Virus record (IMG/VR): IMGVR_UViG_3300033067_001144
DNA from: an uncultured virus (IMG/VR IMGVR_UViG_3300033067_001144)
Taxonomy: Duplodnaviria; Heunggongvirae; Uroviricota; Caudoviricetes
Reading direction: 5' to 3' (one strand)
DNA length: 20,000 nucleotides
Within the stretch, counting starts at the first letter, position 1; each line of letters starts with the position of its first letter. A model generated the notes under the pieces. The model saw only the letters and a program-made list of their open reading frames with translations, did no database searches and was not told the origin of the DNA. Positions 3,088-19,567 of the stretch are shown here, one piece after another. The position numbers and the translations under genes are program-made.

Positions 3088-4557
3088 ATGAAGACCTTTG
3101 CTATCCGCCTTGGGTTCGCGTGCAACAGCTCCAGCACGCACAGCATCCTCCTGCTCAACGACGCGAGTGGCCTGGAGACCATCCCTAGTTACGGCTTTGG
3201 GGACTACGGCTGGGACTGCTTTCAGCTCGTCACACGACAAGACAAGTCGGACTACCTCGCGGCTCAGATGCTGAGCACGCTGCAGACGTTCAAACAGGCT
3301 GGTCAGTTCCCGATGATGGTCCAAGAGCTGTTGCCAGAGGCAACCTCCATTCCTATGAAGGAGGATGGGTCCTACGAGTACGGCTACGGCGTCGACCACC
3401 AGTCGGTGCGATCGTTCCCCGTCTCGTGGGACGAGACGATGTTGCACTTGGACTGGTTTCGAAGCTTCCGGGACTTCGTACTCGGACCGAACGTCGTTAT
3501 CACGGGAGGCAACGACAACGGAGATGAGAAGGAGTCGATTCCTGCCGAGAATCGACCCAAGCGGAACATCGCTCCGTATTCACCGCTGGACGATCGGAAC
3601 AGCCATGGCGTAGCTCGCTACGACGCACCCTCCGACAGTTGGGTGCTGTTCAATCGATCAACTGGCTTTCGTGTTCGTATGACCTTCAACGACACGCTGC
3701 CCGAGATCGTCTACTCGGAGACCCCTGAGCTAGTGGATGTGAAGATCACGGACAAGTGCGACACGGGTTGCACGTACTGCTACATGGGAAGCACTCCGAG
3801 TGGGGCTCACGCGTCCAACGCGGCCCTCGACAAGCTGGCCAAGGAGCTGGCTGAGATGCGAGTGTTGGAGGTTGCTATTGGTGGCGGAGAAGCAACTCTG
3901 CACCCGTACCTTTCGGTGTTCGCGCAGTCCCTCCGCTCGAACCATGTCGTGCCAAACATCACGACGCGCAACGTCGACTTCGTGCTGGGCCTCGTCAAAG
4001 ATCGTGGTCCGTGGGGTGCCGTCGCGTTCTCAGTCGACACCGCGGAGCAGGTTACGGCCCTTGCGGAACTTGTGGAAGCGACCCGTAAGAGCAGCGGGAC
4101 GGATCGCTACGCTCCGAGCATCTCGATCTCGATCCAATACGTCGTCGGTCTGACGACGAACGAGGCCATCCTTCGAGGAATCTTCAAGGCGTGCAGGGAC
4201 GCTCGCTTCCGCATCACACTCTTGGGCTACAAAACCACGGGCCGTGGGTTGCTCTTCAAGCAGAAAGCAGCGCTTGACTGGTTCCACGTTGCTAAGAAAG
4301 AGAACATGACGCATCTCCTCGGCATCGACACGACCCTGGCTCGCGTCCACGTCGAGGGCCTCGTGCAGAAGGGGGTCGACCCTCGCACCATCACGCAGCA
4401 CGAAGGGCAGTTTTCGTGCTACGTCGACGCGGTAGCGGGCCGCATGCGCATGAGCTCCTACGACAATCAAGAGGGCATCGACATCACGAAGCGCTCCCTC
4501 CACGACGCCTGGGACATGCTCCACGGAAAAGACCCGTCTGCAGGGGATGCCTCGTGA
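3088..4557 (+). CDS. Radical SAM protein with an extra N-terminal domain
   Basis: CDTGCTYCY (CxxxCxxC), VAIGGGEAT, NITT and AFS motifs. The N-terminal ~200 aa begin IRLGFACNSSSTHS. GAAAGG RBS. Confidence 0.9.
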   Translation: MKTFAIRLGFACNSSSTHSILLLNDASGLETIPSYGFGDYGWDCFQLVTRQDKSDYLAAQMLSTLQTFKQAGQFPMMVQELLPEATSIPMKEDGSYEYGYGVDHQSVRSFPVSWDETMLHLDWFRSFRDFVLGPNVVITGGNDNGDEKESIPAENRPKRNIAPYSPLDDRNSHGVARYDAPSDSWVLFNRSTGFRVRMTFNDTLPEIVYSETPELVDVKITDKCDTGCTYCYMGSTPSGAHASNAALDKLAKELAEMRVLEVAIGGGEATLHPYLSVFAQSLRSNHVVPNITTRNVDFVLGLVKDRGPWGAVAFSVDTAEQVTALAELVEATRKSSGTDRYAPSISISIQYVVGLTTNEAILRGIFKACRDARFRITLLGYKTTGRGLLFKQKAALDWFHVAKKENMTHLLGIDTTLARVHVEGLVQKGVDPRTITQHEGQFSCYVDAVAGRMRMSSYDNQEGIDITKRSLHDAWDMLHGKDPSAGDAS

Positions 4558-5465
4558 CGCTGGACGAAGAAATCGCGTTCGTTCGCGAAGCGGATCGCAT
4601 CCTTTCCCGTTGGTCCGCTCTCGACGGGTTGAACAAGTACGATAAGCCCTATCGAGGAGACGAGCAGCACGAGATTCTCGTTCACGATCATCGCGAGCAT
4701 TGGTGGGCCTTCGTACCCCATGAGTACGACAGCCAACTCCTCCTCTTTCGCTCGAAGGAAGAAGCGGAGCGAGGGTTCCTCTCGGAACGAGCCTTTGGGC
4801 CCTGCGCCAATGGCTTCGCTCAGGCTCTTAAGGTCTACGAAGAGCCCGAGTTTCGGTCTGACGAGGATGGCATCCTTAAGCTGTCGAGTCGTAATAGGAG
4901 TACACATTACATCGTCCTTCGACGGGACCATTGGGTTCCCTGGCACGTGTCGACCGAGGCACTAGGCATCGACGACACGTTTCACAGACGGTCCTTTCTG
5001 GACCTGACGGAAGCGCGTTCCCTCTTGGCTGGACTGATCGCACAGCACGGGGCTGATCGTGTGCGGCAAGCTATGTTCGCGCACTTCTACAGTAAGGGTC
5101 GCGACGAGGAACCTATGTTCCTGGAGGAGTTCGATACGGATGACCTATTGGTGTCGTACGACGCCTACAAGCTCGTCGCTCAGCTCGCGACGCATCCTCG
5201 CATGCAGGTTGAATGGGCCGCGCTTCAGGAGGAGAAGGGCAACGACATCCCTACGGAGCTTCGCGTGCTGCTCGACAAGGCTTCGTACTACGCAGATCTC
5301 ATCGGTCGTCCGCTGGATTTGGAGATCGAAGTCTCAAAGCCCTCGGACGTGAAGCTTCCCGAAGTCTCTCGCTGGATTCGACCGCTGGAAATCCCGTACG
5401 AGGATGTACGACGCGGAGACTCGTACTTAGGCGAGGATGTGCCTTCGGAGACAACCGATGAATGA
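4554..5465 (+). CDS. Hypothetical protein (303 aa)
   Basis: GTGA start/stop overlap with the radical SAM gene and an AGGGGA RBS. Acidic, no family recognised. Confidence 0.7.
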   Translation: MTLDEEIAFVREADRILSRWSALDGLNKYDKPYRGDEQHEILVHDHREHWWAFVPHEYDSQLLLFRSKEEAERGFLSERAFGPCANGFAQALKVYEEPEFRSDEDGILKLSSRNRSTHYIVLRRDHWVPWHVSTEALGIDDTFHRRSFLDLTEARSLLAGLIAQHGADRVRQAMFAHFYSKGRDEEPMFLEEFDTDDLLVSYDAYKLVAQLATHPRMQVEWAALQEEKGNDIPTELRVLLDKASYYADLIGRPLDLEIEVSKPSDVKLPEVSRWIRPLEIPYEDVRRGDSYLGEDVPSETTDE

Positions 5466-6015: not shown

Positions 6016-6038
6016 TCCACGCACGCAAGGTACCTTTG

Positions 6039-6070
6039 GTGGGGTGGGGTTCAGTCGAGCCCCACCCCAC
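6039..6070 (+). terminator. GC-rich hairpin (terminator-like or regulatory)
   Basis: GTGGGGTGGGGTTC-AGTC-GAGCCCCACCCCAC forms a 14-bp stem with one G-U pair, followed by ACGTGTTT. Confidence 0.55.
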
Positions 6071-6101
6071 ACGTGTTTCCCAAACCTATGGACGAATCTG
6101 C

Positions 6102-7730
6102 ATGAAGAAGTCGCTGCGCAAAGCCATTCAAGCCCACACCGAACGCGAGGTACCCTGCACCGAGAACGGTCTCTACCACGAGGTGATTCACGGTAAGTCA
6201 CACCGTGTGCTGCGCTCCCTTCCCGACCACTGCATTGACGCGTATGTGACGGACCCTCCGGCGGGCATCGAGTTCATGCAAACATCGTGGGATAGTTTTG
6301 GAGGTCGCAACGAAACAGCGTCAGGCCAACGAGATACTGCGCAGTGGAACGTGAAAGGGAAGGACAGCAAGCACGCGAACATTCCCAAGATGCGTCTGAC
6401 GACGAGCCAGGGCTCCTTTCATAAGGGAGCTCGTGAAGCCTTCATCAAGGCTATGCACAAGGTCTTCAAAGAGGTTCTCCGCGTGCTCAAGCCGGGGGCC
6501 TACGCGCTCGTGTGGGCCATTCCTCGTACGTCCCATTGGACGACCACCGCCTTGGAAGACGCTGGCTTCGAGATTCGAGACATTCTCACGCACGTTAATG
6601 TCCAGGGCATGCCAAAGGGGCAAGACCTGGGTCGTATGATCGATCGGAAGCTCGGGAACGAGCGGAAGGTTATTGGTGTCAAAGAAAGCCACAAAGCCCT
6701 GGTCACCAAAGAGGGCAAAGTCCACGACATCGGTAAGAGCCGCAATCAGAAGGCTGCTACGAAGGCGTGGGTAACGCAGCCCCTCAAGACCGCCCCAGCT
6801 TCCTCTCTCGCGGCTAAGTGGGATGGATGGAGCACGACGCTCAAGCCGTGCGGAGAGCACTGGATTCTTGCCCGCGCTCCCATCTCTGAGGGGACGACGG
6901 TCGCGAACGTCCTCGCGCATGGAACGGGTGCCCTCAACATCGACGCCTGCCGTGTCCGTTTCCAATCGGCCGAAGATCAAAAGCAAGCCTCACCACGTCC
7001 GTCTCGGCTACCAAAGCAGGGGTATAACAGTGAGAAGTACGCTCGCTGTGGTCATAAATCTGAGGAAGCCCGAGAAAAATATGACGAGCGTGCACTGGAG
7101 CCCTCCAGAGGACGTTGGCCTCCGAACTTCATGCTGTCCCACCACCCTGCCTGCAAAGCCGCCGGCACGAAGAAGGTGAAGGTCGGCACCGCCTACGAGC
7201 CCAAGAAGGGTTCCGACATGCCGCGTGCCGTGTACGGGAAGTCCAAGACTATGGGCCGCACCGTGACCCACGGAGACGGGTCGGGCACGGAGTCCGTACC
7301 AGCCTGGAAGTGCCACGAAGACTGCCCTGTGCGACATCTTGAAGCCCAAGGCCTCGGGACCTCCCGCTCGTTCCCTCAATTCACCTTCGACCCCGTGTAC
7401 GATGTTCCGTTCGGCTTTCACAGCAAGCCCTCCCGCTCTGAGAAGAATCATCAAGGACAAGTCGAGAACCATCACCCCACGGTCAAGAGCTTGGGATTGT
7501 GTTGTTGGCTGGTGTCTCTCCTTGTTCGCCCTGGAGGCACGGTGCTGGACACCTTTTGTGGGTCTGGGACGATGGGGTGTTCGTCACTCCTAAAAGGAGT
7601 CCACTTTCTAGGGATAGAACAGGACGAGAGCTTCGTGAAGCTTAGCAGGAGACGGCTCAAACTCACCGCAAAAGAGCTGCAAGGGGAGCGTACTCCCCTG
7701 AAGATGCAAGCTCTTTTCAAAGAGGACTAA
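6102..7730 (+). CDS. DNA methyltransferase, N6-adenine/N4-cytosine family (beta-class motif order)
   Basis: Catalytic motif IV variant VTDPPAG near the N-terminus, EVLRVLKPG, HPTVK, and the SAM-binding VLDTFCGSGT...GIE at the C-terminus. Confidence 0.92.
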   Translation: MKKSLRKAIQAHTEREVPCTENGLYHEVIHGKSHRVLRSLPDHCIDAYVTDPPAGIEFMQTSWDSFGGRNETASGQRDTAQWNVKGKDSKHANIPKMRLTTSQGSFHKGAREAFIKAMHKVFKEVLRVLKPGAYALVWAIPRTSHWTTTALEDAGFEIRDILTHVNVQGMPKGQDLGRMIDRKLGNERKVIGVKESHKALVTKEGKVHDIGKSRNQKAATKAWVTQPLKTAPASSLAAKWDGWSTTLKPCGEHWILARAPISEGTTVANVLAHGTGALNIDACRVRFQSAEDQKQASPRPSRLPKQGYNSEKYARCGHKSEEAREKYDERALEPSRGRWPPNFMLSHHPACKAAGTKKVKVGTAYEPKKGSDMPRAVYGKSKTMGRTVTHGDGSGTESVPAWKCHEDCPVRHLEAQGLGTSRSFPQFTFDPVYDVPFGFHSKPSRSEKNHQGQVENHHPTVKSLGLCCWLVSLLVRPGGTVLDTFCGSGTMGCSSLLKGVHFLGIEQDESFVKLSRRRLKLTAKELQGERTPLKMQALFKED

Positions 7731-8778
7731 AGAGCCCTCTTGATCGCAGCCAGGATACGCTTTCGTACCCAAGCCCCTCGCTTGCGGAAGTCGGATTCGA
7801 AAAAGCGTACAACCTGATACCCACACGCTTCCATGTACTTGTCCTGGCTACGATCTAACTTCATCCTTTTCTTCTGGCGATCGTCCAGCGCTTCTTTCGG
7901 GAAGAGCTTTGGATTCCCGTGCCAGTAATCTCCGTCGAACTGAATCACAAGTTTGCGCTTGGGTACGAACGCGTCAACGCAGAACTTTCCCTTGAAGAGA
8001 TGCTGGGCCTCATACCGTATTTCCAAGCCATCTAGCATCTCATACGCCTCAACCTCGAACTTGTTCGGGCCTTTAGCCTCTTGTTGCTTCTGATTCATGT
8101 CCAGAAGGTGTCTCTTAACCTTCGGGCTGGCGTCCCTGCATTTTAGGGAGCAATATTTCCTTTTGACGGAAGGGGAAGTCCAGAACTTTACCTTACACAC
8201 TTTGCACGTGCGTTCCTTCTTCTTTCTTCTCGCGTGTACGCTGCAGCATTCCAAGGAACATGTTAGACTCTTCGCCTCAAGCCTTTGCTTCTTTGCGTAG
8301 AACTCTTCGCCACACACGCAGCAGTTCACGTACCTGCCCGTTCTCTTTCCGGGCTTCGGAGCCCCTGACTCGTAATGGCAGCGAGCTGAGCAGTACGTCC
8401 TGATGCAATTTGTTTGTGTAAATTCTTCTCCACAGGTCGGGCATTCTTTGACTTCCCGCTCATACACGGTCATGCCCTGAGTCATGCACTGCTTGCTGCA
8501 GAACTTTTTATCAGCTCTCGCCTTAGTGGCATAGAACTCCCCTCCGCACTCCGCGCAGTTCTTAGTTCTTCCTGTTTTCCTTCCAGGCCTCGTCCCTGAC
8601 TTGTAGAAGCAAGGCCTAGAGCAGAACACTCTGGCTCTCTGCTTCTTGGTCTTGTCCTTCATAACAACGGCGCACGTCGGGCACTTTTTCATATGATCTC
8701 CAGGAACAGTCAGAGTAATTGCTCTAATGAAATGGATAACCTGTCTAGACAGACAATAAGCCTGGTTGGTCTAGGTCA
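7479..8778. mobile_element. 1300-bp endonuclease cassette carrying a replacement methyltransferase 3' end
   Basis: ACGGTCAA (TVK) occurs at 7479 and again at 8779, each followed by a homologous methyltransferase C-terminus. The segment between is visibly more AT-rich and contains the only convincing minus-strand gene. Confidence 0.75.
7727..8692 (-). CDS. Zinc-finger-repeat plus DUF559/Vsr-like endonuclease (putative free-standing homing endonuclease)
   Basis: Five CxxC...[FYT]CSxxC units, then FCVDAF...LVIQFDGDYWHG...D...GYQVVRFFESD. Very basic. Its stop overlaps the methyltransferase stop. Confidence 0.85.
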   Translation of the reverse strand: MKKCPTCAVVMKDKTKKQRARVFCSRPCFYKSGTRPGRKTGRTKNCAECGGEFYATKARADKKFCSKQCMTQGMTVYEREVKECPTCGEEFTQTNCIRTYCSARCHYESGAPKPGKRTGRYVNCCVCGEEFYAKKQRLEAKSLTCSLECCSVHARRKKKERTCKVCKVKFWTSPSVKRKYCSLKCRDASPKVKRHLLDMNQKQQEAKGPNKFEVEAYEMLDGLEIRYEAQHLFKGKFCVDAFVPKRKLVIQFDGDYWHGNPKLFPKEALDDRQKKRMKLDRSQDKYMEACGYQVVRFFESDFRKRGAWVRKRILAAIKRAL

Positions 8779-9027
8779 ACGGTCAAATCAATTTCCCTTA
8801 TGCGCTGACTTGGGCGGTTAATCTGCCCACCTGGAGGAGTTGTGCTGGATACCTTTTTCGGGTCGGGAACGACGGGAGCGGCTTGCCTCAAGGAAGGCTT
8901 CCACGTGCTCGGGATCGAGCAGGACCGAGACTTCCACAAGCTGGGACGCAAGCGCTTGCGTCTCACGGCCAAGGACGCAAAGCCTGAACTCATGAAGGCC
9001 CTTTTCGCACCTCGGAGTTCCAAATGA
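8779..9027 (+). pseudogene. Displaced duplicate methyltransferase C-terminus
   Basis: Translates TVKSISLMR*LGRLICPPGGVVLDTFFGSGTTGAACLKEGFHVLGIEQD...RLRLTAK...MKALF, collinear with TVKSLGLCCWLVSLLVRPGGTVLDTFCGSGT...RLKLTAK...MQALF. TGA at 8806 sits where the intact copy has Trp. Confidence 0.85.
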
Positions 9028-9552: not shown

Positions 9553-12500
9553 ATGAAGCTTCCCCCTCCGAATCCGGCCGCTGTCCTCCCGCATCTTCGT
9601 ACGTACGCGAAAGCCGTACAGGACGAACTCAGGCATCAGCGAATCCCCACTCCCGCCTCCGTGCTCCGTACGAACGACGGGTGGATGGGGAAGCTTCCGG
9701 CTCCTGCGGTGGTCTGCACGTTGTTGCGCACTTTGACGGTGGGTCATCGAAGCAACCTCAAGAACTCTCCCATCTCTGTAGCAGAGTTGTTCTCGAAGTT
9801 GCTGTCGGGTCCGTGGGAGGGCTATGTCGAGCAGCAGATGGCCGACGCTCTTTTGCTGCTCCGGCCCAACGGTCCCGCACCCGAATGTGAGGAGACCGCG
9901 CAGCTTCGCGCACTAGCGGCAGAGACGAGCCAGCTTACGGCGTGGATCTCCGAGCAGACGGTCATCCGACTCGACAGGGGGCAGGATACGCTCCACGCGA
10001 ACATCGAGCTGACCGGCATCGAAGCCGGAGGCAACTTGTTCCCGTTGTTCTATGGGGTCCTCGCGGAATTGGATCGAAGCGTCCACTTGAGCTCTGACGT
10101 GGGGCTGTGGCGCAAATGGTCCCAGGAAGTCCCGGTTCTCTGGGAGCGTCTTCTGGAGAAAGGGGGAGCCCCCGATCCTTCTTCGGTGCGTGAGCTTTTC
10201 ACGCGGGCCGAGGTACTGAATCTTCCTGTGTCGTTGAGCTTGTACGCGATTGCCATGTCGCACCCCGCGATGCTTTCGACGGAGGTCACGTTCCAGAACA
10301 TCGTGAGCAGTGAGGGGAAGAAGGTGTCTCGGGACGACCAGCTCAAAGCCCTCCGATCGAGACGTCAGGACGAGGACAAGATGCCTCACGAGGAGCAGCC
10401 TTCCCCGCTGGTCTACCCGCACGTTGCCGACGGCAAGCCCGTGTGGCGAAGCCTGTGCCTGCAGGCCTCCGACGGGCCCTTGGTCCGCGAACGCAACGAT
10501 GGAACGCAGCTTCGGCACCCATACCTCTATGCACTCGCGCGACACATGGGTCTGAGCCCCGTTTCTCCTCACGTAGTGCTGAGCTCCGTCTCTCCTGAGC
10601 ACGCAGGATTTGACGATTTCGAGCCTCAACAGGAGATCGAGGCTTCCGTGGTTCGTAGTGCGGGTCAGGAGGGATCCCTCGCTCTCGTAGGCGATTCGAC
10701 CAACACGCATCTCAGGGCTAAGGCTTGTATCCTGCTGGAAGACTTCCGAAGGCTCTATCACATGGACGTGAAGACGTCCCCGACCATCTTTCGGAACACA
10801 AGCGGCCTCTTTCCGGCCTTGGGCTTTCTGCCCCAGAACCAGAAAGCCTCGTCGTACCTGGGGACGCTGGAGTATCACCTCTACACGATCCTCTACAACA
10901 TCTCCCGTGGGCATCCTGACAAGTTGGTCCGTTCTCGTGCGTTCAACAGTGCGTCGACGCTGCACACGTACGCCTCCACAGACGAGCTACTCACGTACGC
11001 ACTGAGCGTAGAGCTTTTGGCCAAAGACGTCGGGTACTGGGATGTGATTCCAACCTCGTTCGTAGAGTCGCTGGAAGAAATACGGAGAATGCTGACGTCA
11101 ACTCAGGCGACCGCTGTCGAACCCACAGAACCGAAGCCTGACAGGGCTGCTTGGTTGCCGCTCTCGTTGGAGCCTTTGACGTCTCAGGGGGAGATATTGA
11201 AGACGCACACCCAGACGCGTTACGTCCACCCCTGGACGTACGCTCTTGCCCTGAAGACACTCCCCGATCCCTCCGTTTTGTTCAGGACGGAGACCGTACT
11301 GCACGAAGTATCCCCTCTGGACCACCAAGCCCTTTCGTGGGACGCACACGGAACTCCAATCGTCCCTCCCGGACCGCACGCGGTCAACTTCCAGAGCGCG
11401 TTTGACGCCACGCAAGACGCTCTTAAGGGTCCAGCTTTTCGTGCGGAATGCCTTGCTCAAAACAAGGGGACGGACTGGAGATTCGCGACTTGGATACTAC
11501 CCAACGGGGGCCAGAGCACGGAGCACAAGCTTCGCATCTTGCTCTACCAATTCGTGTATCGCCTCTCCCACCTGAACCTAGGTCGTAATCTTGCACACAG
11601 CATGGATCGACTCCTCGATACAATCACAAAGGGCACAGTTGAAGAGCTCGTCGAGTCGTGCGTGACCATCACCTCTCTCATCGAGAAGGAAGACTTTCCT
11701 CTCGACGTACCCGACGCCTATGGAGATGCTGTGACCGACCTGATTTCTAAGCTTCAACGAGAGACGGCTTCCGTTGAGGAAAAGGTCGAGACGCAACCTC
11801 GTACGCGCTCGTGGCTGCACTTCTCTGTAGCCGTTCCCGAAGATGCTGTATGCGCTCCGTGTGAGCACATTCGCAATACGTTCCGCAATACGTTCCTTCA
11901 TCCATGGCTCTACGCGCTGGCCCTGAAGCGGCTCGGTCCAAAAGCCGCTTCATCATTGGTCAGTGAGCGTTCCCAGCGAGGTGTGATCCAATACTGGTCG
12001 TCGGGTCACCCGGACCTTCCCCACGCTTCTTTTCTGTGGACCCCTCCTCTCGCAGAACTTGGCATCGCCAAGGCTGAGCTTGAAGAGAAGGCTACTGAAG
12101 ACCTGAAGCCTGAGGGCTGTGATGAAGCCGATTGGAACGCATTCGTGCTGGAGGCCGATGGCCTCCACATGCGTCGGCACAATCTTACGGTCACCTACGA
12201 CCCGAATACCGAGTGGGCTGTCCTTCCGGTTCCTCCTGGTGGTCCCAAAATCAGTGCGACCGACCACCTTCGCGCTCTCGCCTACCAACTTGCGTTCCAG
12301 CTCCTGCATTCCGCTCCGGGTGGCCAGTCCTACATCGATCTTCTTCAGTTCCGGGATCGGATTCTCGATCCGAGCCTAAGCACGAAGAGACTCATGCAAG
12401 AGATTCTCGACGTGCTCAAGCGGTGCCCCGAGGACTATCGACTGGAGATTCCTGACGCATACATGACGTCCCTGGAGAAGCTTGCGGCAGAGCTTCATCT

Positions 12501-15500
12501 GACGAAGGAATCTCCCGCGGAAAAGAACGCGGCCCTAAATATCCGCGCGTCCCGAGCCGAGGCTATCCTACAGAGCGCTTCCGAGCTTGCTCTTCCGCCC
12601 AACGTCGCTGTGCAGGGAGAGGCTGTCGTGGCTGACTTTCACACCTACAACAGGAAAGACCCTTTGAGCGCATCCGTCCCCGTGGCACCTCAGCAAACCA
12701 CCCTTCCTGCCCGTGGGAAGGTATGGCAATCCATGTACTCCGCTTCGGGGTCTGAGCCGTACTATGAGATGCCCCGACAAAGCGTTGAGTTTGCGCATCC
12801 TTGGCTTTTGGCCGCGGCTCACATAGCAGGCTTCTCGCCAGAAGTGATTGACGACCTTGTGCGCGAGGAAGCCGCTCGTCACGGGAGCGCTCGTGCTCAA
12901 TTCTCTACTCATGCTTCTACAACTCTTTTGCAGAAGCTCCACTCGTTCGCAGAGCGTCACGAGAAGGCACCAGAAGGAAAAGACTCGTCGATCTATCGGA
13001 CGAATCTGGTCGATCGCTTCAAGGCCGCTGTCTCAAAGCTTGATCACTTCTCTCCTGGGGATGGGGAAGACACCCCGTGGCTTGGGGACGACGTGGCGTT
13101 CGCAGCGCAGCAGTGGTTTCACGCGAAGGCCAAGCGCGGAGAAGAAGTCTGCGTCAACGACATGCTGGAGTTCTACGGCTACACACTGCTGTTCCAGCTC
13201 GCGTACTGGAGCAGCGTACCCACGGAAGAGATCGCGAAACTGTGGTCTAAGGACCGGAGGACCTACGGGCGCTCTCTGGTGAAAGAAGCGCTGCGTCTTT
13301 CGGACGAGGACCAATTCGACATCCCGGATTCGATTCTGGCTACGCTGCAGTACCTGCTGTTGCGCGAGGGATCGTCTCCGATGGATGAGAACTACATCCA
13401 ATCGGGAAGCTTGATCTCTTTTCCTCTCCCGGCGAAGGTGGCTACCGTTCCCAGCGTCACAAGGGCCCTCGCGGAGTCTCTCGAAGAACTGACGTGGACG
13501 TGGGACGAGACTCACGTCACAATCCGCAGGAAGAACGAGACTCCTCTTATTACGTGTTATCGCTCTTCTCTGGCCTCGTTCGAGGCGAACGGAATCACCT
13601 ATACCACGGAGGTCCCTCCCAACATGGAGGGATCTCTGGCTGGTTCGTACACGAGAAATACGACCTCGGATGCGAAGATCGAGGCCCCCATGAAAGAGGC
13701 CACTGCTGCTATCCTTCCTACGCCTCCAAAGCCGCTCCCCTCGTTGCAGACACCTCTACAGCAACAGGAAGGAAAGGCCCCCGTAAAGGAGGAGCATGAA
13801 GAAACTTACGAGGCTAGACACTTGGCCTTCCCGAGGGAGGACATGACGTTCTCCTACGATTCTCGCGACTCGGTGTACGCTACGACACGCGCAGGGACGC
13901 GCGCACAGTTTGCACTACGAGTCTCAGCACTCCAGCGAGAGGTTCTGTCCACGCTGGACATAGGTAAGGACAGGTGGGTATCTCTGCTCACCGCCTCAGG
14001 TTTGTGGGAACCTGCACACCCCTATACCTTCGACCTATTCCACCTTGCGATGGCTCGCCTTCATTTGGAGTTCCCTAGGGATGCGTCGCGTCTTGGAGGT
14101 CACGAGTGGAGTTCCGAAGTTCTCCGACATGCGCTGGACGGAGGGAACAATCTCACGGAAGCTCACTCCACCGCGAGGCCTTGGGACGGGGGAGCTTCGC
14201 TGATACTGGCAGTGGAAAGCATCGCAGCGCGGGAAGAAGCTGCGTTCCGCGACACAGTACCGACGGGTACTAGTAAGGCAGCTTTCGATCTCCGATCACG
14301 TGCACTTCGCGCATTCTCGACCTTACTTAGTAAGATGGGGCCTGAGGCGGTAGACCGACTGCAGTCAGACACCAATCCACTGCAGTCACTCAACGACGCG
14401 AAAGACGTGGGGGTAGACGGGACCGCGTGGTCCCTGACATACCACGTAGCTCATCGCGTGATTCTTCACCTTAAGCGCACACGCGGGGCTTCGTTGCGCA
14501 GAGCAATTGATGTCATTCGCATGACATACTGGCGCTCAGCAGCCCCTGCTTACCAGCTTCGAGAGATTCTCAATATTGCACGGCAGGAAGAGATTCGCCT
14601 CCCGACGTATCTCCTCTTTCAGCTCTCAGAGCACGTCGATGCGAACGAGAAAGTCTGGGCAGAATTGCAGGAGGATGGGGTGGACCAACTCCGTAAAGAA
14701 TTGAGCACCTACCCCTATCGTACGAACGATTCGGGGTATGGCTTGACCACGAAAGGAACGACCATGACGGACAAGACGGCTAGCAACGAGAGGATCGAGC
14801 AAGAGATGCGGGTCGCTGTAGGCAAGGCTCAGGCGAGGCTGAAGCGTGCGAGTGACGAAGAAGAGGAGCTCGATGTGGTGAGAGGTGAGACTTCGGCTGA
14901 TAGCGGTGCGGCCTCTGCTACTCCCTACCGCAAGCGTTCATTCAATGCGAGTGAACTACACAGCCTCGTGGAGAAGGCTGCTAGCGCTACGTTCGCTTCC
15001 AGATTCAAGCGTTTCGTCCACGATGGACTCAACAGTGAGGATCCGGAGGAACGAGGGATGGCCCGAGAACTCGTAAAGGCGATGGAGCGCGGGATCGATA
15101 AGACTCCGGAAGAGGATACGAGGAACCTCGAAATCGAGCTCGCAGACGAGAGTGAAGAGGCCAAGCGTCCGTGGTACATGCCCTCCGATACCCTCATCGA
15201 CGACGTGAAGGGCTACGGCATCGAGGGGGTCGTGCGGCTCACCCGCGAAGAGGCCATCGACATGATTCGTGCTCCCGTTCTCTCCTTCTGGAGGAAGGAG
15301 AGCGGTGGGGGTCCGACGGGCAAGATGGTGAAGGCTATGGGAGCCCACTTCTTCCGAGAGGGCGGTAAGCCGGGGGAAGCGGTTCTGTCGGGTCTGGCCG
15401 GGGCTGCGATTCCGTTTGCCATCGAGGCCTTCTCTCCCGAGGATCAGAAACTGCTCCGCAAGGCCTCGGGTGCGCTCCGCAAGGAATTCTTCGGCCACGC

Positions 15501-15738
15501 CTCCCACATGGTCCTCGGCTCCGTGTGGAAGGAGATCAAAGAGCCGCTCAAGGAGGCTCTCGTTCCCCTTCTCTCGAAGATGAAAGAAGCGGCCACGACG
15601 GTGAACGTGGCCAAGGGTGCGCTCGGAGCCGCGAAGACCCGCATCGACGTTCGAGACGCGTCGCGTGATGACGACGTGCACGCAGAAGTGGGCCGCGGCC
15701 GTTCGACGGCCGACCGACGCGCACACAAGCGCGACTAG
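9553..15738 (+). CDS. Very large hypothetical protein (2061 aa) with degenerate internal repeats
   Basis: AGGAG RBS and an uninterrupted ORF. Recurrent W...HP[YW]xxAxA motifs. Possible internal in-frame start at 14764. Confidence 0.8.
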   Translation: MKLPPPNPAAVLPHLRTYAKAVQDELRHQRIPTPASVLRTNDGWMGKLPAPAVVCTLLRTLTVGHRSNLKNSPISVAELFSKLLSGPWEGYVEQQMADALLLLRPNGPAPECEETAQLRALAAETSQLTAWISEQTVIRLDRGQDTLHANIELTGIEAGGNLFPLFYGVLAELDRSVHLSSDVGLWRKWSQEVPVLWERLLEKGGAPDPSSVRELFTRAEVLNLPVSLSLYAIAMSHPAMLSTEVTFQNIVSSEGKKVSRDDQLKALRSRRQDEDKMPHEEQPSPLVYPHVADGKPVWRSLCLQASDGPLVRERNDGTQLRHPYLYALARHMGLSPVSPHVVLSSVSPEHAGFDDFEPQQEIEASVVRSAGQEGSLALVGDSTNTHLRAKACILLEDFRRLYHMDVKTSPTIFRNTSGLFPALGFLPQNQKASSYLGTLEYHLYTILYNISRGHPDKLVRSRAFNSASTLHTYASTDELLTYALSVELLAKDVGYWDVIPTSFVESLEEIRRMLTSTQATAVEPTEPKPDRAAWLPLSLEPLTSQGEILKTHTQTRYVHPWTYALALKTLPDPSVLFRTETVLHEVSPLDHQALSWDAHGTPIVPPGPHAVNFQSAFDATQDALKGPAFRAECLAQNKGTDWRFATWILPNGGQSTEHKLRILLYQFVYRLSHLNLGRNLAHSMDRLLDTITKGTVEELVESCVTITSLIEKEDFPLDVPDAYGDAVTDLISKLQRETASVEEKVETQPRTRSWLHFSVAVPEDAVCAPCEHIRNTFRNTFLHPWLYALALKRLGPKAASSLVSERSQRGVIQYWSSGHPDLPHASFLWTPPLAELGIAKAELEEKATEDLKPEGCDEADWNAFVLEADGLHMRRHNLTVTYDPNTEWAVLPVPPGGPKISATDHLRALAYQLAFQLLHSAPGGQSYIDLLQFRDRILDPSLSTKRLMQEILDVLKRCPEDYRLEIPDAYMTSLEKLAAELHLTKESPAEKNAALNIRASRAEAILQSASELALPPNVAVQGEAVVADFHTYNRKDPLSASVPVAPQQTTLPARGKVWQSMYSASGSEPYYEMPRQSVEFAHPWLLAAAHIAGFSPEVIDDLVREEAARHGSARAQFSTHASTTLLQKLHSFAERHEKAPEGKDSSIYRTNLVDRFKAAVSKLDHFSPGDGEDTPWLGDDVAFAAQQWFHAKAKRGEEVCVNDMLEFYGYTLLFQLAYWSSVPTEEIAKLWSKDRRTYGRSLVKEALRLSDEDQFDIPDSILATLQYLLLREGSSPMDENYIQSGSLISFPLPAKVATVPSVTRALAESLEELTWTWDETHVTIRRKNETPLITCYRSSLASFEANGITYTTEVPPNMEGSLAGSYTRNTTSDAKIEAPMKEATAAILPTPPKPLPSLQTPLQQQEGKAPVKEEHEETYEARHLAFPREDMTFSYDSRDSVYATTRAGTRAQFALRVSALQREVLSTLDIGKDRWVSLLTASGLWEPAHPYTFDLFHLAMARLHLEFPRDASRLGGHEWSSEVLRHALDGGNNLTEAHSTARPWDGGASLILAVESIAAREEAAFRDTVPTGTSKAAFDLRSRALRAFSTLLSKMGPEAVDRLQSDTNPLQSLNDAKDVGVDGTAWSLTYHVAHRVILHLKRTRGASLRRAIDVIRMTYWRSAAPAYQLREILNIARQEEIRLPTYLLFQLSEHVDANEKVWAELQEDGVDQLRKELSTYPYRTNDSGYGLTTKGTTMTDKTASNERIEQEMRVAVGKAQARLKRASDEEEELDVVRGETSADSGAASATPYRKRSFNASELHSLVEKAASATFASRFKRFVHDGLNSEDPEERGMARELVKAMERGIDKTPEEDTRNLEIELADESEEAKRPWYMPSDTLIDDVKGYGIEGVVRLTREEAIDMIRAPVLSFWRKESGGGPTGKMVKAMGAHFFREGGKPGEAVLSGLAGAAIPFAIEAFSPEDQKLLRKASGALRKEFFGHASHMVLGSVWKEIKEPLKEALVPLLSKMKEAATTVNVAKGALGAAKTRIDVRDASRDDDVHAEVGRGRSTADRRAHKRD
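11872..11895 (+). repeat. Perfect 12-bp in-frame tandem duplication
   Basis: CGCAATACGTTC twice, encoding RNTF-RNTF. Confidence 0.9.
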
Positions 15739-15799
15739 CCTTCTCGGCCTTCTTCGCTTCCTTCCTTACGGCCTTATGGCCTTCTTACCCGTCGCGTGA

Positions 15800-16654
15800 C
15801 CAACCCCACCACTCGAACGTGACTCGTATCTTAGACGTACCCTTACAGAGAAGCAGGCGCCACACTTTAGGTGTACCCCTTGGAGGCTACGCGTATCGTT
15901 GACTTTGCGTACCCCAGTGCCTCTGCATGTTCCATGGGATCTACGTACCCCAAACAGTCCGCGTGCATCGTTCGGGCCGCGCATCCCAGACGTCTTGCTT
16001 GCATCGAATGGCAGACGCACCCCAATTCTTGACGTGAACCGCGGGAACCACCGAATCCCAGCCCCGCCTCGTGTACCAATGGTGCGTCTTATCCCAGCAT
16101 CGAAGCATGAGTCTTGTCGCGTGTGTACCCTTGTGCCATGCACGAATCGTTGATGTTGCGAACCCCTATCCTGCGGCATATGCCCGTACGCCCACGCATC
16201 CCGGAGTCCCTCGCACGTATCGACTCCCGATCGAACCCCAAGGCTGGGCATGCCTCGTAAGCTTTGAGCGTATCCCGTGCCGACCGCAGGTTTCAGGCAA
16301 TACAGCGCACTCCGTCGAGGAAGCAAGAACCACCTCGTCAGAGAATCCCGTCCCAAGGTCGTGCGTCGTCCACCACACGTACCCCCACGTTCTCACTCGT
16401 ATCCTGGATCTTACGCACTCCGGCGCGACTACATGATGCAACGAACCTTCGAATCCCAGCACACGCATGTATCGACGGGCCGTCGAAACCCAGCTACCTT
16501 GCATGAGCTACCGATCCCGCGTACCCCATTGTTTCGGCTCGTACCTCAATAGGCTCGTATCCCGGCTAGCGCTCGTGGGTTGTATCGACCCGCATCCTTA
16601 CACGTCTCGTGACTCACGCGCATCCCAGCCTCCCGGCTCGTACCCGTAAAGGGG
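15800..16654. repeat. 36-nt-period dual-repeat/dual-spacer array (~24 units), TIGR-like; putative guide-RNA array
   Basis: An 8-nt motif near CGHAYCCC starts at 15800, 15836, 15872, 15908, 15944, 15980, 16016, 16052, 16088, 16124, 16159, 16195, 16232, 16269, 16306, 16342, 16378, 16414, 16450, 16484, 16520, 16556, 16591 and 16619. A second 10-nt motif near DCDYGNNYCR starts about 17 nt into each unit. The ~9-nt segments between are unique. Confidence 0.85.
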
Positions 16655-16671
16655 TGGTGTCCCCCCACCCC
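16651..16671 (+). promoter_or_regulatory. Small hairpin closing the array
   Basis: GGGGTGG-TGTCCCC-CCACCCC followed by ACGTCTTT. It resembles the 6039-6070 element. Confidence 0.4.
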
Positions 16672-16702
16672 ACGTCTTTCCTCGAACCAGAAAGTGAACG
16701 TC

Positions 16703-19162
16703 ATGATCCAGAAGCGTCTTCTCTCCGCGGTCATCCACTCGTTCGTCGGTGCCCTGCAGCACCAGTGGATGGTCGAGCAGTCTGTCCTCGACTCGGGCAA
16801 CACCAAGGCGGCCCCGGCCCCCTCGCACCACATTCTCTGCGTGGATCGTTCCGGCTCCATGTACGGAGACATCGACGACGTGAAGAGCACGCTCACGAAG
16901 CTCCTCACGCTCGAAGAGGCTCGCGACTCGAAGCTGATCGTTTCGGTGATCTCCTACTCTTCTCAGCGGGACACGATCGTGCACGCGAGCCGCGTTCCGA
17001 TCGCGGAGTTCATGGCTGCGAAGAGCCCGCACCTTGCGGCCGTGCAGAAGATTCAGGCTACTGGCCTGACGTGCATTTCGCAGAGCCTCGACACCGCGAA
17101 GACGTTGATTCGTTCGGGCGAGACGACGTGCGTCACGCTGCACAGCGATGGCTATGCGAACGATCCGTCTCCGGGCTCGGAGGGCCGTGCGCTCCGCGAG
17201 AAAGTGATGGAGCTCCGCACGCTCCCTGGGGTGTTCGTCAACACGGTCGCATACCGTGCGTACAGCGACTTCCAGACGCTCTCAGCTCTCGCAGCCCTTG
17301 GAGGCGGTCAGTGCTTTGCCGCTCCCACGGCTGCTGAGCTCAGCAAGGCCCTCGGTCAGACGCAGCACGCACTCGCGGGCTCGCTGACCCCCACGATCGA
17401 GATTGGTGCTGCTTCCAAGCAGCGGGCCCTCGTCGTTCTCTCGGACGGTCGCGTTCTCTTCGGCAAGGAGGGGGAAACACTGCGCATCGACGGCCTCCCC
17501 GCGGGTGCGTCGGGAACGGTGTACCGCTTCAACGAGATGCAGACGAGCGGCATGGGGGCGATGCCCCCGAACGAGGCTGGACCGAACTTCTACGTCGCAC
17601 TCGCTCGTGGGGCTCTTGCGCAGGGCAGCATCGAGCTCGCGAAGTACGCGATGATGAGCTCGGGTCTCTCGTCGCTGCGTGATCCCTTGCTGCTTCGTGC
17701 TCTCTCGGGCCCAGACCTCGCGATGCTGTCTACGTTCCTCGAAACGGTGGACGTGAATGGGCCTAGGGTTCCCGCGAATGAGGCCACGAAGATCAAGGCG
17801 GACGGTCCCAGCCTGCTGCAGTTCGCGACGTTCGTGCGCAAGCACAAGGACGATCTCGCGCTCGACGGTCCCGATCTGCTCGCGAACTACAAGCGCATCG
17901 GGGTGAAGAGCCTCGACGGCTCGCGTGACAAGAAGACGGGAGCGATCACTCCCCCGCGTGCGTCGGTGAAGGACCGCGACGCGAGCCCCTGGTGGCCCGT
18001 GGGTGCGATGGAGTCGAACACGGCCAGCGCGAACATGAACCTTCGTGTGGATCGTCCGGTTGATCTCGTCGTCAACGGTCAGGTCCAATCGGAGATCGCG
18101 GGGGTCAAGCTCACGAACCTCACGAGCTACCGCAACTACACTCTCGTGGTCGATGGGCAGACGTCGGTTCCCTCGATTCGCATGCGTGCAAGCACCGAGA
18201 AGGCCCGCAAGGCTCTCTCGAAGTTCGGGTCGGTGGACGCTGAAGGCGTAGCGACGGTGCCGATCGGAACCATGCCGGTTCTCGCGTACGACACGCAGGT
18301 CCCTGTGATCTCGCGCAAGGTCATCGATACGTACTTCGTCGCGACGGCCCTCAGCAAGATCGTCGCGGCCCTTCAGAAGGGAGCTCCGAAGGCTGGGACG
18401 GGGACGTACTCCCCGGACCAGCTCGCGGCCCTTCGCGATGTGTACATCACCCCGTCGCTGAACTTCTCTCCTCCGAGCACGGTCCCGTACACGGACCGCA
18501 AGGCGGCCTTGGCCGCGGGGTCGATCGACACACGCATCTCGTACTGCGTGGACGTGGGCACGACGCTGATTCAGTCGGCTGGTTCGTTCCCTTCGGCCAA
18601 CGCGTACCTGGAGCGTCGCTTCACGCTCACGGTGAATGGCAAGGATCAGGAGATTGATTGGCCGTCCGTCACGCAGATGGGGGCCAAGGTCGACGTGAAG
18701 AATCTCACTGCGCGGACGAAGCTGTCGGCGGTGGACGACCTTCTCTTCCCGCTGTACAGCCAGATTCTCGGCCTGCAAGTTACGCGGGATGACCCGATGG
18801 CTCAGTTCTTCGCGAACGCAAGCACCCCGATCACGCAGCAAAAGCTTCTGCAGAAGCTCGTCACGGTGGGGGAGGCTCCCGACGCGGCCAAGCTCGGGAA
18901 GATGGCCGACTATCTCGACGGGGTGATCGACGACATTCGCGAGGAGTACCTCAAGCCCTTCGCGCTCTACACAGGTGCGAGCGGCATCCTTCCGGCTGGG
19001 TATGCAACGAAGCTGGAAACGGCTGACCAGATCACCAAGCGCTACCCGAATCTCAAGATCAACAGCGAGCAGGCGGACGGCAGCTTTTTCGAGCAGCCCG
19101 ACCACGTGCTGCTCTCCGTATACCCGACGGAGAGCGACTTCTCGACGACGAAGCCTGCCTGA
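16703..19162 (+). CDS. von Willebrand factor A (vWA) domain protein with a long uncharacterised C-terminal region
   Basis: MIDAS motif ILCVDRSGSM, then GLTCIS and LHSDGYAND. About 819 aa with strong codon bias. Confidence 0.88.
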   Translation: MIQKRLLSAVIHSFVGALQHQWMVEQSVLDSGNTKAAPAPSHHILCVDRSGSMYGDIDDVKSTLTKLLTLEEARDSKLIVSVISYSSQRDTIVHASRVPIAEFMAAKSPHLAAVQKIQATGLTCISQSLDTAKTLIRSGETTCVTLHSDGYANDPSPGSEGRALREKVMELRTLPGVFVNTVAYRAYSDFQTLSALAALGGGQCFAAPTAAELSKALGQTQHALAGSLTPTIEIGAASKQRALVVLSDGRVLFGKEGETLRIDGLPAGASGTVYRFNEMQTSGMGAMPPNEAGPNFYVALARGALAQGSIELAKYAMMSSGLSSLRDPLLLRALSGPDLAMLSTFLETVDVNGPRVPANEATKIKADGPSLLQFATFVRKHKDDLALDGPDLLANYKRIGVKSLDGSRDKKTGAITPPRASVKDRDASPWWPVGAMESNTASANMNLRVDRPVDLVVNGQVQSEIAGVKLTNLTSYRNYTLVVDGQTSVPSIRMRASTEKARKALSKFGSVDAEGVATVPIGTMPVLAYDTQVPVISRKVIDTYFVATALSKIVAALQKGAPKAGTGTYSPDQLAALRDVYITPSLNFSPPSTVPYTDRKAALAAGSIDTRISYCVDVGTTLIQSAGSFPSANAYLERRFTLTVNGKDQEIDWPSVTQMGAKVDVKNLTARTKLSAVDDLLFPLYSQILGLQVTRDDPMAQFFANASTPITQQKLLQKLVTVGEAPDAAKLGKMADYLDGVIDDIREEYLKPFALYTGASGILPAGYATKLETADQITKRYPNLKINSEQADGSFFEQPDHVLLSVYPTESDFSTTKPA

Positions 19163-19333: not shown

Positions 19334-19567
19334 GTGGCTAGCACGAAGGATGCGCGGGATCGTTGCAACAAGCTCGCACGCAAAGTGTTCAAGGAACCCG
19401 CTCTTACGCGTGTACGAGCACAACCCTTCCACCCACGGCTCTCGGGCATGTACCTCGCGTGGGTCTACTCGGCTTCGTATGTACTCCACGCACTCGGACC
19501 GACCCCCGAGGCTGCCCTGAAAGAAATCGAAACTCTGCTACGACATCACACACGGAGATCGACATGA
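19334..19567 (+). CDS. Hypothetical protein (77 aa)
   Basis: GAGGTG RBS with GTG start. ATGA overlap with the next ORF. Confidence 0.55.
   Translation: MASTKDARDRCNKLARKVFKEPALTRVRAQPFHPRLSGMYLAWVYSASYVLHALGPTPEAALKEIETLLRHHTRRST

Follow-up and report, generated by a model that had tools for sequence, protein, structure and literature searches.

Are the short motifs that recur every 36 nucleotides (nt) in a gap between two genes of an uncultured phage the repeats of a guide-RNA array and, if so, to which system would such guides belong? The locus lies in a 20,000-nt stretch of DNA (hereafter the window) from the uncultured virus IMGVR_UViG_3300033067_001144 (IMG/VR; Caudoviricetes), within a 955-nt gap that extends from the stop codon (15738) of an open reading frame (ORF) of 2061 amino acids (aa) to the start (16694) of a gene for a von Willebrand factor A (vWA) domain protein, all on the plus strand. 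Judged from its sequence, the locus is probably a dual-repeat TIGR-type guide-RNA array of the phage, the canonical Tas protein of which would be encoded outside the window. Because the effector that defines such systems was not found in the window, the locus is not classed here as a complete TIGR-Tas system.

Anatomy and coding status of the array

In published TIGR arrays, two repeats of 8–12 nt, termed edge and loop, alternate with 9-nt spacers to form units, and tigRNAs, of 36 nt, and the repeats carry box D at their start and box C at their end (Faure et al. 2025, PMC12045711). The array studied here spans positions 15782–16645 of the plus strand, from a 5'-truncated edge repeat through the last full edge repeat, is non-coding and comprises 24 copies each of the loop and the edge repeat and as many predicted guide units. 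In the autocorrelation of the gap (15739–16693), peaks at lags of 18, 36, 72 and 108 nt reach 0.338, 0.349, 0.331 and 0.349, against a background mean of 0.263 (standard deviation 0.024; lags 1–120). A position-weight scan recovers 24 phased copies of CGNAYCCC from 15800 to 16619, and across the whole window sites above 8 bits number 22 on the plus strand, four of them outside the array, and six on the minus strand. The interval between units is 36 nt in 16 of 23 cases, the remainder being 37 nt (three), 35 nt (two), 34 nt (one) and 28 nt (one). Both the autocorrelation and the weight-matrix scan therefore bear out the original prediction, which had described about 24 units with a 36-nt period, 16 of 23 intervals at exactly 36 nt, the others at 34–37 nt and the last at 28 nt. 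Its placement of the array at 15800–16654 holds for the array itself, but not for the ends, the start lying ~18 nt earlier (15782) and the end at 16645. Tandem Repeats Finder gave no report within the array, and in a periodicity scan the array reached a z-score of 6.4, compared with 7.5 for the SpTIGR array of Salicola phage CGphi29, which served as positive control.

Two repeats of 9 nt alternate along the array. The stronger reads CGNAYCCC[A/G], and the weaker, C[A/G/T][T/C]GNAYC[A/G], lies ~18 nt past each stronger one, where it was recovered at 6.33 bits by an iterative 9-mer search (offsets 15–22); in shuffled unit interiors (n = 200), the second-repeat score was 3.41 ± 0.28 and never exceeded 4.25. 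Both repeats can be divided in a 2 + 4 + 3 frame, the stronger as CG/NAYC/CC[A/G] and the weaker as C[A/G/T]/[T/C]GNA/YC[A/G]. The parse into 8-nt and 10-nt repeats that had been proposed earlier is right about the two alternating kinds but not about their sizes, since both fit a frame of 9 nt (10 nt with a flanking purine). The stronger repeat is assigned below as the loop and the weaker as the edge. In the loop repeat, box D is CG in 19 of 24 copies and box C is CCA in 12 and CCG in 6 of the 24, whereas in the edge repeat box D is reduced to C[A/G/T] and box C is mostly TCG (nine) or CCA (four).

The two spacers of each unit are 7–10 nt (A) and 8–11 nt (B) long, mostly 9 nt, with one unit truncated. 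Their mean pairwise identity, 0.288 for A and 0.255 for B, lies at or near the 0.255 expected from composition, in agreement with the earlier statement that all variable segments differ, whereas the repeats reach identities of 0.70 and 0.53 against this random level of 0.255–0.288. Spacer likeness is 0.247 between neighbouring units and 0.254 between distant ones. C and G are balanced within the spacers, and the C-richness of the strand therefore stems from the repeats alone.

The array opens with the truncated, degenerate edge repeat (15782–15790), which matches the consensus in its 3' part (N-A-Y-C) only. Delimited from mid-edge to mid-edge, predicted guide 0 (15786–15821; 36 nt) is placed by the repeat consensus and all later ones, likewise on the plus strand, by the guide alignment: predicted guides 1 (15822–15857), 2 (15858–15893), 3 (15894–15929), 4 (15930–15965) and 5 (15966–16001) are followed by 6 (16002–16036; 35 nt), 7 (16037–16073; 37 nt), 8 (16074–16109), 9 (16110–16144; 35 nt), 10 (16145–16180), 11 (16181–16217; 37 nt) and 12 (16218–16252; 35 nt). 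The second half continues with predicted guides 13 (16253–16290; 38 nt), 14 (16291–16327; 37 nt), 15 (16328–16363), 16 (16364–16399), 17 (16400–16435), 18 (16436–16469; 34 nt), 19 (16470–16505), 20 (16506–16541), 21 (16542–16577) and 22 (16578–16611; 34 nt), and finishes with predicted guide 23 (16612–16640), which is defective, being 29 nt long with a first spacer of 2 nt. In the corrected phase, the final full edge repeat (16637–16645), recognised by the repeat consensus, closes the array, and a GC-rich hairpin of 7 bp (six G-C pairs and one U-A; 16651–16671, plus strand) with a weak T run behind it stands directly 3' of the array. Apart from the weak T run, this layout of the array ends would fit the published description (PMC12045711). 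Just 5' of the array, an 8-nt repeat, CCTTACGG, is present in 2.5 copies at 15764–15783, where the contig from sequencing run X7 is 8 nt shorter.

Each of the six frames of the array region is interrupted by stop codons and has a negative codon-usage score, and codon-position GC bias is absent; for reference, seven of eight model gene stretches score +0.12 to +0.42 in frame, and the eighth +0.29. A 196-aa open frame on the minus strand (15766–16356) scores −0.168 bits per codon and likewise lacks codon-position GC bias. The longest open run in the array region, of 208 codons, was matched in 16 of 500 shuffles, and no reading frame would be kept through the units of 34, 35, 37 and 28 nt. No Pfam match was obtained for the five open frames within the array, and neither Rfam (E ≤ 1) nor ARAGORN reported anything in the array region.

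Pairing of the guide ends and variation between strains

The published edge repeat is described as containing an extra covarying base pair that joins both ends of one guide (PMC12045711). In the present array, the last gap base of the weaker repeat in unit k (column 23) is complementary to the first gap base of the same repeat in unit k+1 (column 20) for 20 of 23 neighbours, with pairs of the types A-T (11), G-C (5), C-G (2), T-A (1) and G-T (1), the mismatches being T/T (2) and C/C (1). When partners were permuted, a mean of 12.6 was obtained, and 20 was reached by 3 of 200,000 permutations. In an unbiased scan of 1387 column pairs, within units as well as between neighbours, this pair ranks first (z 4.78). 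With randomised unit order (n = 600; 736 neighbour column pairs), the highest value was 4.23 and the 95th percentile 3.68, compared with a real top z of 4.37. By contrast, the two gap bases of the same copy pair in only 11 of 24 cases, which is below the permutation mean, and the pairing constraint thus acts on the unit that runs from mid-repeat to mid-repeat, a unit that would correspond to the processed tigRNA. Because the complementarity spans neighbouring copies, the weaker repeat is the edge and CGNAYCCC[A/G] the loop. This reverses the phase given in the original prediction, the 10-nt repeat of which behaves as the edge and the 8-nt repeat as the loop. We note that the runner-up complementarity, between column 15 of unit k and column 8 of unit k+1 (15 of 22, against 8.6 expected; z 3.3–3.6), is probably due to chance, as it falls inside the range of the random-order maxima (95th percentile 3.68).

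The same constraint is visible across the end helix. Among 23 aligned predicted guides, 72.5% of the cells of a 3-bp end helix are paired, compared with 58.6 ± 3.1% in shuffles (reached by 0 of 500), and 13 cells are changed on both sides, compared with 4.7 ± 1.7; sliding the partner by −1 or +1 lowers the paired share to 20–22%. Since the guide alignment took its offsets from the repeat matrix rather than from pairing, and since the spacers are unrelated to one another, the signal is unlikely to stem from common descent of the units. Even the truncated first repeat follows the rule, its gap-end base A15787 being able to pair with T15820 in the edge repeat that follows. Excess folding is absent on either strand (z 0.32 and 0.77 against shuffles), and pre-tigRNAs have likewise been reported without it (PMC12045711).

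The plus strand is the likelier transcript. On this strand only, CG...CCA fits the published box D and box C; the flanking genes are encoded on it; the hairpin comes after the last edge repeat on it; and the G-U cells of the end helix (1, 2 and 9 in the three pairs) would be A-C mismatches on the other strand.

The stretch is present, whole or in part, in 20 of 24 listed sequencing runs from nine studies, none of which is recorded as RNA, the one labelled RNA-Seq cDNA being probably DNA, and the phage occurs in wastewater, activated sludge and fresh water. Four of these runs were compared with the window, all as assembled contigs: X2 and X8 from wastewater, X6 from activated sludge and X7 from fresh water. 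The X2 contig differs at 33 of 229 positions over 15876–16104, which is followed by replacement of a 109-nt block by one of 145 nt (+36) and then by 10 differences in 139 positions, whereas 8 of 1721 and 1 of 639 positions are changed in its upstream gene. The X8 contig differs at 33 of 247 positions over 16214–16460 and carries a replacement of 175 nt by 259 nt, with 92 differences in 2856 positions downstream. The X6 contig is identical throughout 15746–16067, and the X7 contig, which spans everything, shows 181 differences and 19 gaps in 6568 nt. In contigs from other metagenomes, divergence amounts to about 14% in the array against 0.4–3% in the flanks. Among the in-array differences listed, 12 in number, seven fall in spacers and four at degenerate repeat positions, one restores a consensus C and none breaks a conserved repeat base. 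Change in the array thus far outpaces that in the flanks in some lineages, as would be expected of a guide bank.

Known guide systems, partner proteins and rival readings

The closest likeness is to the dual-repeat TIGR arrays SpTIGR-TasH and TaTIGR-TasR. They share with the present array the 36-nt period, the alternating short repeats that frame two spacers of 8–9 nt, the layout of box D, 4-nt gap and box C (with the geometry of 2 + 4 + 3 giving exactly the 9-nt repeat), and the pairing of edge-repeat halves across one guide (PMC12045711). Similarly, the TIGRFinder method specifies a box C of 3 nt, a 9-nt spacer and a box D of 2 nt with gaps of exactly 4 bp, and calls the edge phase from complementarity of the terminal bases of the 4-nt gap (10.64898/2026.09.09.750476). 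Together, this published geometry and the end-pairing covariation support the earlier proposal that the locus is either a TIGR array whose repeats have diverged or a guide system related to it. In the experimentally validated SpTIGR array (NC_020844; accession from PMC13421893), 10-nt repeats that end in CCA alternate with 8-nt spacers; the period is 36 nt, two units measure 37 nt, several copies are degenerate, and the array, which has a terminator, begins ~40 nt past the tasH stop. With SpTIGR-TasH, the present locus also shares a position directly 3' of a gene on the same strand, a predicted hairpin at the end, a phage as carrier, occasional units of 35–38 nt and degenerate copies.

Differences from the published arrays concern number, variability and the effector. 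The array holds 24 units, whereas most described ones have 5–15; the paired edge bases vary here from guide to guide but are fixed per locus in the published cases; and TIGR-Tas systems have a Nop-domain tas gene (TasA, TasH or TasR) beside the array (PMC12045711), while none was detected in the 20 kb analysed here. In stem-loop TIGR arrays such as PlTasA and PateTasR, CG and CCA are among the accepted motifs, and both are present here (PMC12045711, 10.64898/2026.09.09.750476). However, these arrays have palindromic stems of at least 5 bp on either side of each spacer pair, in contrast to the end helix of 2–3 bp and the lack of excess folding seen here, and the regular 36-nt units set the present array apart from them. 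Box C/D guide RNAs of archaea and eukaryotes also place two guide segments between C/D-type motifs and join their ends by pairing (PMC12045711), but the present units lack a C/D consensus that would form a K-turn, are far shorter, stand in tandem and are found in a phage. A broader likeness exists to CRISPR arrays, which share the repeat-spacer logic, the turnover of variable segments between strains and the possibility of an effector encoded elsewhere, but have a single repeat of 25–36 nt in place of two alternating 9-nt kinds with paired 9-nt spacers. CRISPR arrays without cas genes occur on phages.

No related array emerged from IMG/VR. A search for three phased CGNAYCCC motifs gave at least 122 matches (121 ranked and nine loci read by eye), of which the chained ones listed are all simple tandem repeats of 9, 12, 18 or 36 nt. 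The pattern loop + edge + loop gave eight matches, seven of them isolated and without periodicity; the other (L268) is a short tandem repeat with near-identical units.

The search for a Tas protein covered 15.8 kb upstream and 3.3 kb downstream of the array, and its outcome is the first of several observations that weigh against a TIGR-type array. Across its six frames, the 20-kb window has 91 open frames of 90 codons or more, and none was matched by Nop (PF01798) or Transposase_20 (PF02371); 86 of them were scanned stop-to-stop with Pfam at E ≤ 0.5–1 and five as genes at E ≤ 0.01. SpTasH itself is detected by Pfam through Transposase_20 (PF02371, E 2.5e-5) and not through Nop. A phmmer search with SpTasH returned nothing among the window proteins, and a TasH profile built from SpTasH and 60 of 120 listed homologues (61 sequences) gave a best E of 0.93 in hmmsearch and a probability of ≤ 1.3% in hhalign, in which ten pieces of the 2061-aa protein and nine other ORFs were compared. 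The remaining points are of sequence and signal. Compared with the described dual-repeat arrays (PMC12045711), the box motifs are looser and differ between edge and loop repeats, which have in common only C at position 1, Y-C at positions 7–8 and, at position 9, a purine. When at least three consecutive perfect box C-N9-box D intervals with 4-bp gaps were required, as in a strict TIGRFinder-like seed, a search with 1024 motif pairs on both strands found SpTIGR and nothing in the window, so that a motif-seeded finder would probably miss this array. For a second candidate end pair, between base 1 of box C and base 2 of box D, 16 of 23 guides are complementary, a count that does not exceed permutation. 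The folding energy of the hairpin at 16651–16671 does not surpass that of shuffles (z −0.73), a proper T run is missing behind it and a terminator scan did not report it, and no sigma-70-like promoter was found. Finally, assembled contigs such as those used for the strain comparison can be chimeric in repeats.

Other partners and targets were sought with the following outcome. The window contains no gene for Nop5, fibrillarin or L7Ae, and PDB-sequence searches with three other unannotated window ORFs gave nothing relevant. PF01798, which is not a sensitive model for Tas, matched none of five related huge-phage records. Paired spacers of 22 guides, taken in the corrected pairing as adjacent sites on opposite strands in both geometries, had no match with one mismatch or fewer in 3.3 Mb of DNA, and at two or fewer and three or fewer mismatches the counts equal those of mis-paired controls; in the window itself, three sites with three mismatches are within the control range. 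Paired targets of the kind that the original prediction had looked to thus do not rise above controls in these 3.3 Mb, an 18-nt site being too short for a meaningful search of whole collections. Its statement that the window has no clear Tas gene is upheld by the Pfam scans of the 91 frames, by the TasH profile and by the confident fold of the downstream neighbour, described below.

The same anatomy and end-pairing covariation would also be expected of an array with TIGR architecture that does without a canonical phage Tas, relying either on a Tas that the host, a prophage or a co-infecting element provides in trans, or on a partner without a Nop domain such as the 2061-aa ORFan, a reading we regard as unlikely. 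The absence of a Tas-like gene from the 15.8 kb upstream and 3.3 kb downstream would be explained, and the succession of gene, gap, array and hairpin on one strand parallels that of SpTasH and its array. Indeed, the 2061-aa gene (9553–15738, plus strand), which has clear coding statistics, stops 43 nt before the truncated first repeat and thus occupies the usual place of tas. Its product is without relatives beyond a C-terminal match. No Pfam, PHROG, NCBIfam, PADLOC or PDB-sequence match was obtained, and a word-indexed search of 5.8 billion clustered proteins returned only the protein itself, with no match for the last 662 aa alone. A full HMMER scan with residues 862–2061 found a single 1445-aa relative (P0122), which aligns over the last ~155 aa only (E 5e-16), and one further weak repetitive match; two parts of the protein gave no usable ESM Atlas match, and no homologue of the giant gene is present in loci L001–L076. 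Against a partnership of this protein with the array, it is unlike Tas in ten overlapping pieces of 400 aa (hhalign probability ≤ 0.3%) and acidic to neutral along nearly its whole length, and for its C-terminal 502 aa (residues 1560–2061) AlphaFold2 without alignment reached a predicted local distance difference test score (pLDDT) of 41.5 and gave no usable model. A tas gene elsewhere is the simpler assumption, because the window represents 20 kb of a contig that may be ~77 kb long. We note that the 2061-aa protein contains five HP[W/Y] motifs (residues 322, 559, 783, 1082 and 1489), the spacing of which suggests repeated modules of about 250–400 residues.

Alternatively, the repeats could act as DNA, with a phage protein binding to the CGNAYCCC and YGNAYC cores as it would to iterons, a centromere-like partition site or a packaging site. 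Short conserved cores in one orientation and at fixed spacing, with unconstrained DNA between them, would suit such direct-repeat sites, as would the fact that no partner RNA-binding protein is visible in the window. However, binding sites of this kind predict no complementarity, as opposed to identity, between bases 33 nt apart, let alone complementarity kept through four pair types. In addition, neither 36 nor 18 bp corresponds to a whole number of helical turns, the window contains no recognisable replication or partition gene, and the cumulative GC skew does not turn at the array; we therefore consider this reading very unlikely. Last, a decaying 36-nt minisatellite or the relic of a 12-residue coding repeat, with no present function, is extremely improbable: the period equals 12 codons, a 196-aa frame is open on the minus strand and the length of the array varies between strains, but conservation is sharply two-state where neutral decay would blur all columns alike, neighbouring units show no extra likeness, and the stops in six frames, the negative score of the minus-strand frame and the frame-shifting unit lengths speak against a coding origin.

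Genomic setting and proposed function

By its PHROG matches, the window is phage-like. Directly downstream of the array, the gene at 16694–19162 (plus strand) encodes an 822-aa protein with an N-terminal vWA/MIDAS domain, in which the motifs D-x-S-G-S and HSDGYAND are invariant. AlphaFold2 predicts its structure confidently from a 47-row alignment (pLDDT 84.6, predicted TM-score 0.81), and the best 50 of at least 500 fold matches are all of the vWA type (ArnB, Sec23/24, integrins and pilus adhesins), with no Nop or Tas protein among them. Members of this family, with full-length identities of 28–38%, are found on huge-phage contigs and on chromosomes of cyanobacteria, Planctomycetota and others, and the best match among GenBank phages (35% identity) comes from an uncultured phage of 485 kb. 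No 36-nt variable-spacer array accompanies the vWA relatives in 141 loci (11 viral, 64 metagenome and 66 genome loci) and the record of the 485-kb phage, all of which are at most ~40% identical over their full length. Period-36 signals at four of these loci trace to a coding repeat (L013), another coding repeat (L140) and a CRISPR array (L091), with nothing visible in the fourth (L115). The CRISPR array, at ~4850–5200 of the locus from Scytonema hofmanni UTEX 2349 and ~5 kb from the vWA homologue, is an ordinary one, with a 37-nt repeat and a period of ~72 nt. Past position 19567, at least 255 letters of the X7 contig are unlike the window, so that strains differ in what follows the vWA gene.

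Further upstream, three phage genes with PHROG matches on the plus strand encode a truncated class II aminoacyl-tRNA-synthetase-like core (2012–2767), a radical SAM protein whose weak matches are viperin-like or SPASM-maturase-like (3088–4557) and a DNA methyltransferase of the N6/N4 type (6036–7730). GC content dips to ~0.52 at 7501–9000, compared with 0.57–0.61 around it. The dip covers an ORF on the minus strand (7727–8692), the product of which is rich in zinc ribbons, carries a Vsr/DUF559-type endonuclease domain at its C terminus and has a PHROG match to HNH or homing endonucleases; the ORF looks like an inserted homing-endonuclease gene.

If the locus is a TIGR-type array with its tas gene beyond the window, as we favour, transcription of the plus strand would start at an unrecognised promoter or enter by read-through of the 2061-aa gene, and the precursor would be cut in the middle of each edge repeat (C-R-T-G/N-A-Y-C-R) to yield about 23 usable guides of 36 nt. 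In its 5' half, each guide would consist of 5'-NN, box C (YCR) and the 9-nt spacer A; its middle would be formed by the loop repeat, with box D CG, the gap NAYC and box C CCA or CCG; and its 3' half would comprise the 9-nt spacer B, box D (CR) and NG-3', such that both guide ends close a stem of 2–3 bp. A dimeric Nop-domain Tas, encoded beyond the 20 kb seen, would bind the box C/D pairs of the edge and loop repeats and offer one spacer to each strand of an 18-bp DNA site, which would then be bound or cut, depending on the type of Tas. Such guides may serve in competition between mobile elements or in gene regulation.

A bolder version, which we consider doubtful, is that the phage carries a stand-alone bank of ~23 TIGR-type guides without a tas gene of its own, either redirecting a foreign Tas or working with an unrelated partner, for example the 2061-aa ORFan. 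If true, TIGR-type guide RNAs would exist beyond the loci of array plus adjacent Tas that published searches have covered. The published TIGR catalogue is described as built outward from tas genes, 5 kb to either side (PMC12045711), and the TIGRFinder search as confined to "surrounding tas loci" (10.64898/2026.09.09.750476); in the TIGR papers searched for that term, no mention of orphan TIGR arrays was found. What is new at the present locus is TIGR architecture with loose box motifs, compensatory end pairs that change guide by guide, 24 units and no adjacent tas.

A guide array of the TIGR kind can, on the reading we prefer, stand at least 3–16 kb from any recognisable effector, and its motifs can be loose enough to evade motif-seeded finders. 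We suggest that the pairing of guide ends can be read from covariation inside one array, which provides a sequence-only test of edge phase, unit boundaries and RNA-level function that may be applied to other unexplained 36-nt arrays. Should the whole genome prove to be without tas, the locus would exemplify guides that act in trans or serve a new partner.

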